From NCBI RefSeq assembly GCF_041886205.1, contig NZ_CP169031.1: 64,000 nucleotides of DNA; one strand, 5' to 3'. The translations under genes and the position numbers were made by a program. Positions within the stretch are counted from its first letter, which is position 1. The number at the start of each line of letters is the position of its first letter. The DNA is from Escherichia coli (GTDB taxonomy: Bacteria; Pseudomonadota; Gammaproteobacteria; Enterobacterales; Enterobacteriaceae). Under the pieces are notes generated by a model. It worked only from the letters and a program-made list of their open reading frames with translations. It searched no databases and was not told where the DNA came from. Of the stretch, positions 31,621-35,025 are shown in pieces.

Positions 31621-31646
31621 TTCTCTTAAACCAAGGTTTAGGATTG
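31621..31646. promoter_or_regulatory. cixR recombination site for Cin
   Basis: ttctcttaaaccaaggtttaggattg, inverted partner of cixL; overlaps the cin 3' end. Confidence 0.6.
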
Positions 31647-32198
31647 AAATGACGACGCCGGAAACTTCTTATAAAGCGTGGAAACAGCCACATCATAGAT
31701 GATTGCAACCTGCTTACGGGGGATGCCATTCTCCAGCAATCGCCGCATTTGCTGCCATGTTTCTTCTTGGTATTTAGGCCGACGTCCACCTATACGACCT
31801 TCTGCGCGAGCTGCATCAAGTCCAGCGCGTGTACGTTCAACGATAAGCTCACGTTCCATTTCTGCCAGCGCTCCCATTACGTGAAAGAAAAAGCGCCCCA
31901 TTGGTGTACTGGTGTCGATAGAGTCAGTGAGACTCCGGAAATTAATTCCTCTGTCACGCAGCTCTTCCACCAGCACAACCAAGTGACGCATGCTGCGCCC
32001 AAGACGATCTAACTTCCATACGACCAGGGTGTCACCTCTGGAAAGCATACGCAAAACCTTTTTTAGCCCAGGGCGTTCAGTCTGTTTGCCGCTCGCCTTA
32101 TCCTCAAAAATTAGCTCACATCCTGCGCTTTCAAGGGCATTTCGTTGCAAAGCAGTGTTTTGTTCATTTGTTGATACGCGTACATAGCCGATCAGCAT
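31638..32198 (-). CDS. cin: Cin DNA invertase (serine recombinase)
   Basis: 186 aa from MLIGYVRVSTNEQ (serine recombinase active-site motif); the track ORF extends further upstream but has no RBS there. Confidence 0.85.
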   Translation of the reverse strand: MLIGYVRVSTNEQNTALQRNALESAGCELIFEDKASGKQTERPGLKKVLRMLSRGDTLVVWKLDRLGRSMRHLVVLVEELRDRGINFRSLTDSIDTSTPMGRFFFHVMGALAEMERELIVERTRAGLDAARAEGRIGGRRPKYQEETWQQMRRLLENGIPRKQVAIIYDVAVSTLYKKFPASSFQS

Positions 32199-32261
32199 GA
32201 TTTTTACTCTAACCGGCTCATTTAAACCGTCTGGTCTGTTTCCTCCGGCTCTACAAAAATA

Positions 32262-32939
32262 ATGTCCATCATTTTTAATGGACACTATCGTATGAAACAC
32301 CGGACCTGGATCACTGAAGCTTTACGTCTTCACTTTGAAGAACATTTACCCCGGGTTGTGGCCGGGCGTCGCCTGGGTGTACCAAAATCAACAGTTTGTA
32401 GTATGTTCGTGCGCTTTCGGAGAGCTGGCCTTTCGTGGCCTTTGCCCGCAGGCATGTCGGAGCAGGAACTTGATGCCTGCCTTTACGGACAATTTTCCAC
32501 GGTACCAGTCGTACGTCCTGAAAGCACCGTTATATCCGAAGCCCCCGTGGTAAAAAAACGTCCCCGGCGGCCCAACTTCCCTTATGAGTTTAAAATCGCC
32601 TTAGTGGAGCAGTCACTGCAGCCCGGAGCCTGTGTGGCGCAGATCGCCCGGGAAAACGGAATCAACGATAACCTGCTCTTCAACTGGCGCCATCAATACC
32701 GGAAAGGTGGCCTGCTGCCTTCCGGAAAAAATATGCCGGCACTGCTTCCCGTGACGTTAACGCCGGAGCCGGATAATAAAATCCCGGCCCCCGCACAGGA
32801 ACCAGAGCAGATAAATACACCGTCCGACAGTCTGTGTTGTGAGCTGGTTCTGCCGGCCGGAACTCTCAGGCTTAAAGGTAAACTGACGCCGGCGTTATTA
32901 CAGACACTTATCCGCGAAATAAAAGGGAGCAGCCACTGA
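32262..32939 (+). CDS. IS66-family accessory protein (orf1/TnpA-like) with N-terminal HTH extension
   Basis: C-terminal part (RRPNFPYEFKIALVEQSLQPGACVAQIARENGINDNLLFNWRHQYRKG) is IS66 orf1-like; the ~95 aa N-terminal part carries an HTH-like segment (GRRLGVPKSTV). Confidence 0.55.
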   Translation: MSIIFNGHYRMKHRTWITEALRLHFEEHLPRVVAGRRLGVPKSTVCSMFVRFRRAGLSWPLPAGMSEQELDACLYGQFSTVPVVRPESTVISEAPVVKKRPRRPNFPYEFKIALVEQSLQPGACVAQIARENGINDNLLFNWRHQYRKGGLLPSGKNMPALLPVTLTPEPDNKIPAPAQEPEQINTPSDSLCCELVLPAGTLRLKGKLTPALLQTLIREIKGSSH

Positions 32940-33286
32940 TGATATCTCTCCCTGCAGGTTCGCGTATCTGGCTGGTTGCAGGTATCACCGATATGCGAAA
33001 TGGCTTTAACGGCCTGGCATCAAAAGTTCAGAACGTCCTGAAGGATGACCCGTTCTCCGGACACCTGTTCATCTTCCGCGGACGCCGGGGTGACCAGATA
33101 AAAGTGTTGTGGGCTGACAGTGACGGACTGTGCCTCTTCACCAAACGCCTGGAGCGGGGCCGCTTCGTCTGGCCAGTCACCCGTGACGGCAAGGTGCACC
33201 TTACTCCGGCTCAGTTATCCATGCTTCTTGAAGGTATCAACTGGAAGCACCCGAAACGAACGGAACGCGCTGGAATCCGCATATAA
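32939..33286 (+). CDS. tnpB: IS66-family TnpB (orf2)
   Basis: 115 aa; start overlaps the orf1 stop (atga), typical of IS66. Confidence 0.75.
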   Translation: MISLPAGSRIWLVAGITDMRNGFNGLASKVQNVLKDDPFSGHLFIFRGRRGDQIKVLWADSDGLCLFTKRLERGRFVWPVTRDGKVHLTPAQLSMLLEGINWKHPKRTERAGIRI

Positions 33287-33305
33287 CCCGTTGTAAAGTG
33301 AGGAT

Positions 33306-34877
33306 ATGGACACCTCACTTGCTCATGAGAACGCCCGCCTGCGGGCACTGTTGCAGACGCAACAGGACACCATCCGCCAGATGGCTGAATACAACCGCCT
33401 GCTCTCACAGCGGGTGGCGGCTTATGCTTCCGAAATCAACCGGCTGAAGGCGCTGGTTGCGAAACTGCAACGTATGCAGTTCGGTAAAAGCTCAGAAAAA
33501 CTTCGTGCAAAAACCGAACGGCAGATACAGGAAGCACAGGAGCGAATCAGCGCACTTCAGGAAGAAATGGCGGAAACGCTGGGTGAGCAATATGACCCGG
33601 TACTGCCATCCGCCCTGCGCCAGTCTTCAGCCCGTAAACCGTTACCGGCCTCACTTCCCCGTGAAACCCGGGTTATCCGGCCGGAAGAGGAATGCTGTCC
33701 TGCCTGTGGTGGTGAACTCAGTTCTCTGGGATGTGATGTGTCAGAGCAACTGGAGCTTATCAGCAGCGCCTTTAAGGTTATCGAAACACAACGTCCGAAA
33801 CAGGCCTGTTGCCGGTGCGACCATATCGTGCAGGCACCAGTACCTTCAAAACCCATTGCACGCAGTTATGCCGGAGCGGGGCTTCTGGCCCATGTTGTCA
33901 CCGGGAAATATGCAGACCATCTGCCGTTATACCGCCAGTCAGAAATATACCGTCGTCAGGGAGTGGAGCTGAGCCGTGCCACACTGGGGCGCTGGACAGG
34001 TGCTGTTGCTGAACTGCTGGAGCCGCTGTATGACGTCCTGCGCCAGTATGTGCTGATGCCCGGTAAAGTCCATGCTGATGATATCCCCGTCCCGGTCCAG
34101 GAGCCGGGCAGCGGTAAAACCCGGACAGCCCGGCTGTGGGTCTACGTCCGTGATGACCGTAACGCCGGTTCACAGATGCCCCCGGCGGTCTGGTTCGCGT
34201 ACAGTCCGGACCGGAAAGGTATCCATCCACAAAATCACCTGGCCGGTTACAGCGGTGTGCTTCAGGCCGATGCTTACGGTGGTTACCGGGCGTTATACGA
34301 ATCCGGCAGAATAACGGAAGCCGCGTGTATGGCTCATGCCCGGAGAAAAATCCACGATGTGCATGCAAGAGCGTCCACCTACATCACCACGGAAGCCCTG
34401 CAGCGTATCGGTGAACTGTATGCCATCGAGGCAGAGGTCCGGGGCTGTTCAGCAGAACAGCGTCTGGCGGCAAGAAAAGCCAGAGCCGCGCCACTGATGC
34501 AGTCACTGTATGACTGGATACAGCAACAGATGAAAACACTGTCGCGTCACTCAGATACGGCAAAAGCGTTCGCATACCTGCTGAAACAGTGGGATGCACT
34601 GAACGTGTACTGCAGTAATGGCTGGGTGGAAATCGACAACAACATCGCAGAGAACGCCTTACGGGGAGTGGCCGTAGGCCGGAAAAACTGGATGTTCGCG
34701 GGTTCCGACAGCGGTGGTGAACATGCGGCGGTGTTGTACTCGCTGATCGGCACATGCCGTCTGAACAATGTGGAGCCAGAAAAGTGGCTGCGTTACGTCA
34801 TTGAACATATCCAGGACTGGCCGGCAAACCGGGTACGCGATCTGTTGCCCTGGAAAGTTGATCTGAGCTCTCAGTAA
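33306..34877 (+). CDS. IS66-family transposase (orf3)
   Basis: 523 aa with coiled-coil N-terminus and Cys-rich zinc-binding motif (CPACGG...CCRCDH), typical of IS66 transposases. Confidence 0.8.
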
Positions 34878-35025
34878 ATATCAATACGGTTCTGACGAGT
34901 CGCTTACTTTTACTCTAATGCGTTGTTCTTATGAGTCTGCGAATTTTAAAGAACAAAGCGTTATGCACAGAAATAACAATCTGAATAGGTTCCTGCTTGA
35001 TTTTTGTTAGATCCGGGAGGAGCTT

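Follow-up and report, generated by a model that had tools for sequence, protein, structure and literature searches.

The open reading frame at positions 32262 to 32939 (plus strand) of the window, a 64,000-nucleotide stretch of an Escherichia coli contig, is very probably tnpA, the first of the tnpA-tnpB-tnpC genes in a complete copy of ISCro1. It encodes a long-form IS66 TnpA that would be translated from position 32292 and have a two-headed DNA-binding role. The original prediction had described a frame that runs from 32262 and carries an extra in-frame N-terminal segment, and the frame, which opens with ATG and encodes 225 amino acids (aa), was present exactly as described. Such long-form TnpA proteins are already known: RefSeq annotates them, and a curated family model includes them.

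The ISCro1 copy, its genes and its insertion site

The open reading frame lies wholly inside a copy of ISCro1 (IS66 family) at 32210 to 34907 that is complete apart from the terminal G of its left end. The unit shared 99.96% identity with annotated ISCro1 copies across 2698 bp, with one mismatch in 2698 bp against copy L001, the transposase of which is named "IS66-like element ISCro1 family transposase" in RefSeq. Megablast matched window positions 32201-34912 in 3186 of 5426 complete E. coli genomes at 99.6-99.9% identity, with the annotations "IS66-like element accessory protein TnpA," "TnpB," and "IS66-like element ISCro1 family transposase" beneath the matches. ISCro1 is among the commonest E. 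coli insertion sequences.

The gene order tnpA-tnpB-tnpC, with IS66 Orf2 and DDE_Tnp_IS66 domains, was that of the IS66 family. RefSeq annotates the open reading frame as tnpA (ATG, 225 aa), and its product was 100% identical over 225 aa to WP_001339397.1 ("IS66-like element accessory protein TnpA"), encoded by the 678-bp tnpA of ISCro1 copies L001 and L002. The tnpB gene (IS66 Orf2; 32939 to 33286, plus strand; Pfam TnpB_IS66, E = 4.7e-40) starts within the tnpA stop, the overlap reading TGATG. It is followed by tnpC for the ISCro1 DDE transposase (33306 to 34877, plus strand; Pfam DDE_Tnp_IS66, E = 8.7e-103), which also contains the zinc-finger, leucine-zipper, and C-terminal domains zf-IS66, LZ_Tnp_IS66, and IS66_C. 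ISCro1 (tnpA WP_001339397.1, NF038385) and the window copy share the TnpA protein sequence, gene order, tnpA/tnpB overlap, element ends, and 8-bp duplication, and differ only in the missing left-end terminal G and one tnpC substitution. The latter is a single T/C difference at 34374, inside tnpC, from copies L001 and L002, and the TnpC translation is unlike that of L001. A 72-aa open reading frame in another plus-strand frame (32335-32553) overlaps the N-terminal domain of tnpA, with nothing to mark it as a gene; P0088, a frameshifted ISCro1 TnpA among the database proteins, reads through this overlapping frame.

Element ends were set by comparison of copies; an exact-seed inverted-repeat scan missed the degenerate terminal repeats and a direct search with the right-end sequence matched only itself. 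As in other IS66 elements, the ends were imperfect terminal inverted repeats from GTAA... flanked by an 8-bp duplication. The left repeat, (G)TAACCGGCTCATTTAAACCGTCTG (approximate extent 32210 to 32233, plus strand), could be aligned both to the reverse-complemented right end and to left repeats from relatives, and the right repeat (approximately 34883 to 34907, minus strand) ends ...GCTTAC, the right end of the copy being ...GGTTCTGACGAGTCGCTTAC at 34907. The target-site duplication TTTTACTC forms an 8-bp direct repeat at 32202 to 32209 and 34908 to 34915, and the uninterrupted site of phage P7, GATCAGCATGATTTTTACTCTAATGCG, holds one copy of this octamer. The window copy starts TAACCGG straight after the duplication (32209-32210) and ISCro1 copies L001, L002, and L005 start GTAACCGG after their own duplications; loss of the terminal G might impair further transposition of the window copy.

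The insertion separates the cin and lydC genes of a P1/P7-like phage and lies 11 bp upstream of the codon at which cin starts. The cin DNA invertase gene of this phage (Pfam Resolvase and HTH_7) occupies 31638 to 32198 on the minus strand, and P7 cin is annotated at 561 bp. A mechanical list of open reading frames extended cin to a GTG at 32300 (31638-32300, minus strand, 220 aa), running into the insertion sequence; this extension is an insertion artifact, and the real gene is 561 bp with its start at 32198, as in P7. The insertion (32196-32215 / 34908-34925) also divides the P7-annotated C1 repressor operator Op(lydC) (P7 locus L012, 1403-1419) and may change cin expression or lydC regulation in the phage.

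A further feature of the element concerns its first ~360 bp (32210-32570), comprising the left end and the N-terminal domain, which diverge more between ISCro1 and its relatives than 32570-34907 do. Identity there was 86-89%, whereas L005 reached 94.6% over the entire element and L006 (ISSfl4) 96.3% over the downstream part, which suggests mosaic elements or a faster-evolving 5' module.

Domain layout of TnpA and its translation start

TnpA consists of two helix-turn-helix (HTH) modules and, between them, a variable, disordered linker with a basic stretch at its end. In the 225-aa numbering and on the plus strand, an IstA-like HTH domain spans residues 11-76 (32292 to 32489), the linker residues 77-100 (32490 to 32561), ending in KKRPRRP, and the canonical IS66/IS3-type HTH (Pfam HTH_Tnp_1, E = 8.6e-15) residues 102-159 (32565 to 32738). 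This C-terminal module is the HTH_Tnp_1 domain common to every IS66 TnpA and to IS3-family OrfA proteins: PF01527 scored 55.2 bits against a gathering cut-off of 24.1 over residues 102-159 only, and the core also matched the NCBIfam models for "IS2 repressor TnpA" and the IS3 transposase N-terminus. No Pfam family matched residues 1-100 above its cut-off, with sub-threshold hints of HTH_23 and Sigma70_r4 at E of about 0.07-0.08. The curated NCBIfam model NF038385 ("IS66-like element accessory protein TnpA") includes the N-terminal segment and matched residues 13-206 with its positions 1-189 of 190 (295.8 bits, cut-off 150); with residues 1-100 alone, the match still covered model positions 1-83 (E = 2.5e-28). 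NF047595, a short-form model of 113 positions, matched residues 102-219 only.

An AlphaFold2 model built from a 40-sequence alignment agreed with this layout. In the numbering of the 215-aa protein, residues 1-66 had a pLDDT of about 90, with helices 6-15, 21-28, and 32-44 forming a three-helix HTH followed by a helix at 57-65, and then came a disordered linker (69-87, pLDDT below 50), a second HTH (98-137), and a C-terminal beta-hairpin and helix.

The recognizable IS66 part had been placed near 32547, and this position held to within 32547-32565, as HTH_Tnp_1 and NF047595 begin at residue 102 with about 90 extra residues before them. The motifs quoted from the extra segment, GRRLGVPKSTVCSMF and LSWPLP...ELDACLYG, were also present. 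The description of the protein as unusually long was borne out against the short-form IS66 TnpA proteins of ISEc22 (134 aa) and ISEc23 (141 aa; NCBIfam NF047595 and NF047593) but not within its own subfamily, in which the length is normal. The short forms share with ISCro1 the RRPNFP/EFK motif, HTH_Tnp_1, the C-terminal beta-hairpin and helix, coupling to tnpB, and the distance from left end to start, but lack the IstA-like domain (about 66 aa) and the linker (about 25 aa) that follow the ISCro1 start codon, and in alignments their N-termini fall at about residues 88-95 of the window frame. TnpB of ISEc22 and ISEc23 was 76% and 66% identical to that of the window, and the short-form elements occur in the same hosts. 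The tnpA gene of IS679 is reportedly required for transposition.

Translation probably starts at ATG 32292, 30 nt downstream of the annotated start, giving a coding sequence of 32292 to 32939 (plus strand) for a 215-aa protein that begins at residue 11 (MKHRTW...) and leaving the first 10 codons (32262-32291) untranslated. Production of the full 225-aa protein from ATG 32262, its first 10 residues included, is the RefSeq annotation in L001 and L002 and was recorded on 968 contigs, the 225-aa and 215-aa versions of the exact protein each being found on about a thousand. Residues 2-10 (SIIFNGHYR) are moreover identical in a 74%-identical Raoultella element, which can be read as coding conservation. 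However, the same DNA forms a palindrome, ATAATGTCCAT-N8-ATGGACACTAT (32259 to 32288), that lies just upstream of the likely start, contains ATG 32262, and has arms complementary at 10 of 11 positions. The arms were kept as DNA in L003, L005, L007, L008, and L011, with a spacer of varying length, but the reading frame was not: the spacer has two extra T in L007, one extra T in L008, and greater length with in-frame stops in L011, while L003 has GTG in place of ATG 32262. Residue 11-13 is also where NF038385 and all divergent homologues begin, and in RefSeq's own annotation L007 starts at the position of residue 11. Finally, ATG 32292 stands 83 bp from the canonical left end (terminal G counted), in keeping with 81 bp and 85 bp for the short-form starts of ISEc22 and ISEc23. 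The 225-aa product is on this evidence unlikely, although it keeps some weight. With a start at 32292, the extra domain would therefore sit directly after the ancestral start codon.

A clear Shine-Dalgarno sequence was absent before both candidate starts (32262 and 32292), a sigma-70 consensus promoter scan of 32150-32600 found none, and neither a terminator consensus scan nor Rfam gave a match in or around the 5' region. Among long-form IS66 elements the palindrome took the form ATA(G/A)TGTCCAT-N8/9-ATGGACACTAT and ended 3-4 nt before the likely tnpA start (also in L013, 1985-2012). The short-form element ISEc22 carries TGGACAC twice in direct orientation at the matching place (GTGGACAC...GTGGACGC), and the octamer ATGGACAC also supplies tnpC with its start codon at 33306. 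The arms showed no compensatory changes, ISCro1 having A opposite C. A protein-binding DNA site was favored over an RNA hairpin because of the direct repeat in ISEc22 and the lack of compensatory arm changes, and the palindrome is a candidate operator or protein-binding site.

Coding status of the N-terminal extension

The N-terminal extension is a conserved coding sequence under purifying selection. Residues 11-101, used as the query of an exhaustive phmmer search, returned 512 proteins at E <= 1e-3, and among the matches were full-length long-form TnpA proteins with N-terminal segments 81%, 47%, 44%, and 38% identical to the query, all above the NF038385 cut-off. Three divergent long-form tnpA genes were traced to DNA; all three lay directly upstream of tnpB, and tnpC was also present in both of the traced elements on long enough contigs. 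The same frame was kept in a 74%-identical complete element on a Raoultella plasmid. For residues 11-76, dN/dS (Nei-Gojobori) was 0.15 between the window and L005 (dS 0.49), 0.26 between the window and L007, and 0.21 between L005 and L007. Synonymous sites were saturated against the Raoultella element (41.8 of 48.7 differing), and dN was 0.24 both for the N-terminal domain and for the core HTH region. The linker (residues 77-100) evolved fast (dN/dS 0.3 to above 1) and varied in length by whole codons only, and no stop codon was found in any of eight divergent long-form sequences.

These data decide between the readings that had been offered for the segment, and that of a genuine long-form accessory protein agreed with the RefSeq tnpA annotation, the curated NCBIfam model, the dN/dS of 0.15-0.26, and the frame kept open in divergent IS66 elements. 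If the upstream part were an accidental open frame or a 5' untranslated region, the real TnpA would be short and begin near 32547; in favor of this, the ISEc22 and ISEc23 proteins align only from about residue 88-95 and residues 1-100 lack a Pfam match above cut-offs. It is nevertheless very improbable, as thousands of E. coli copies retain the frame, as do relatives down to 38% identity in complete IS66 elements, synonymous change is saturated and dN/dS low, the curated model covers the segment, and AlphaFold2 folds it confidently. The internal start and ribosome-binding site looked for near 32547 were not found either: the region has no ATG, and its only start-type codon, GTG 32547, is preceded by CCGAAGCCCCC without a Shine-Dalgarno sequence. 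A separate fourth small gene that has lost its stop codon in the window copy would suit the fast-evolving, predicted disordered linker, but it is equally improbable. In each of the eight divergent long-form sequences the frame continues unbroken through the linker, stops between the two parts are absent from all relatives, and the tnpA sequence in the window matches the ISCro1 consensus exactly. Database fragments ending in the linker are frameshifted copies, since they continue in out-of-frame sequence.

The IstA-like domain and the possible role of TnpA

The suggestion that the segment resembles the N-termini of other transposase families proved correct: homology of residues 11-76 to the first HTH carried by one subgroup of the IS21-family IstA transposases is well supported by sequence comparison. 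Most of the listed phmmer matches at 40-50% identity over query positions 7-70 were non-IS66 proteins. Of 10 longer matches tested, eight aligned to NF033546, the NCBIfam model for IS21 transposases, beginning at model position 1, one of them above the cut-off (P0136, 166 bits, cut-off 160), and all 10 fitted positions 5-89 of NF038385 with E-values of about 1e-13 to 1e-16. When the segment was compared by BLASTP with P0136, a fragment passing NF033546, identity was 52% over 62 aa (E = 1e-17). The 40-sequence alignment was gap-free across the domain, with invariant L13, W49, and P50 and the consensus LRL.F...L..R.IAR.LGV..STV...RF..AGLSWPLP......LEA.LY. Two database proteins, P0152 and P0178, have the IstA-like N-domain followed by unrelated fragments (protein kinase, phosphoglucomutase) and are probably gene calls running out of an insertion sequence end into a disrupted host gene.

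Other searches were less sensitive to this relationship. A word-index protein search returned mostly ISCro1-like protein fragments and no IS21 proteins, the IS21 matches coming from the exhaustive search. A phmmer search of the N-terminal segment against PDB sequences gave no match even at E <= 10, the solved IstA (IS5376) included, which has no detectable sequence similarity to the segment. Foldseek of the whole AlphaFold2 model against the PDB found none at E <= 0.001, with generic HTH folds as the best matches (0.087) and IstA 8b4h_C at a probability of 0.85 (E = 1.3), a two-domain model with disordered linkers being ill-suited to global comparison.

TnpA is not an IstA and has one domain only in common with it. 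The N-terminal HTH and the following helix are homologous to HTH-1 of IS21 IstA (NF033546; structures 8B4H and 8Q4D) at 40-52% identity, and both proteins have tandem HTH domains with a flexible linker. In contrast to IstA, TnpA lacks the DDE catalytic domain, the IstA HTH-2, the beta-barrel, and the IstB partner, and it is a small accessory protein of another insertion sequence family. NF033546 was not among the matches of the window protein even at E <= 10, no rve (DDE) domain was found, and the downstream genes are IS66 tnpB and tnpC with no adjacent istB AAA+ helper gene. A local chimera of an IS21 istA remnant adjoining a 5'-truncated IS66 element would suit the clearly IstA-like domain and the terminal repeats missed by the exact-seed scan, but it is scarcely credible given the IS66-type left repeat upstream of the frame at 32210, the 2698-bp unit flanked by an 8-bp duplication of the P7 site, the presence of that unit in 3186 of 5426 complete genomes, and the absence of an IS21 DDE domain, istB gene, or IS21 ends. 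A local IS21/IS66 junction was rejected, as the left repeat, target duplication, and P7 empty site bound a complete ISCro1.

As opposed to a local junction, ancient capture of the IstA-like domain is possible. We tentatively propose, as an idea that falls somewhat short of probable, that the IS66 lineage of ISCro1, ISSfl4, and their Enterobacterales relatives acquired the first DNA-binding domain of an IS21 transposase directly after the tnpA start codon, yielding a tandem-HTH accessory protein that perhaps reads the palindrome or the left end. In the literature searched on IS66 TnpA, IstA, and ISBst12, a search that lay outside ISfinder and the main IS66 papers (Han 2001; Gourbeyre 2010), there was no discussion of the long form or of an IstA-like origin.

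The core HTH of TnpA matched the models of IS3-family OrfA and IS2 InsA regulators (HTH_Tnp_1; NF006928), and OrfA/InsA and TnpA are alike in being small, non-catalytic first-gene products of multi-ORF insertion sequences. Compared with IS3 OrfA, TnpA has no programmed frameshift fusion to the transposase, IS66 adds tnpB, and a second HTH is present in the long form. The IS21 transposase uses a pair of N-terminal HTH domains to recognize two conserved blocks in each of the terminal repeats, with the connecting linker placed in the minor groove (PMC10122671). By analogy, the function of TnpA is probably DNA binding at the left end of its own element. The protein, most likely translated from ATG 32292 and coupled to tnpB via the TGATG stop/start overlap, would be a two-headed, sequence-specific accessory protein; the terminal repeat and the conserved palindrome immediately ahead of the start codon are candidate sites. 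Its binding at the left end may control expression or assist the assembly of TnpC at the ends, in the manner of tandem-HTH transposases such as IstA and of IS3-family OrfA regulators.

The significance of the finding is low, as this is the standard tnpA of a very common E. coli insertion sequence and the result is correct but ordinary. It opens no long-standing question, and its minor uses are a probable start-codon correction, the IstA-like domain, and a candidate operator. If the proposed acquisition is true, a DNA-recognition module was exchanged between two unrelated insertion sequence families. The IstA-like domain offers a concrete idea for the role of the poorly understood IS66 TnpA, that of two-headed DNA recognition at the left end.
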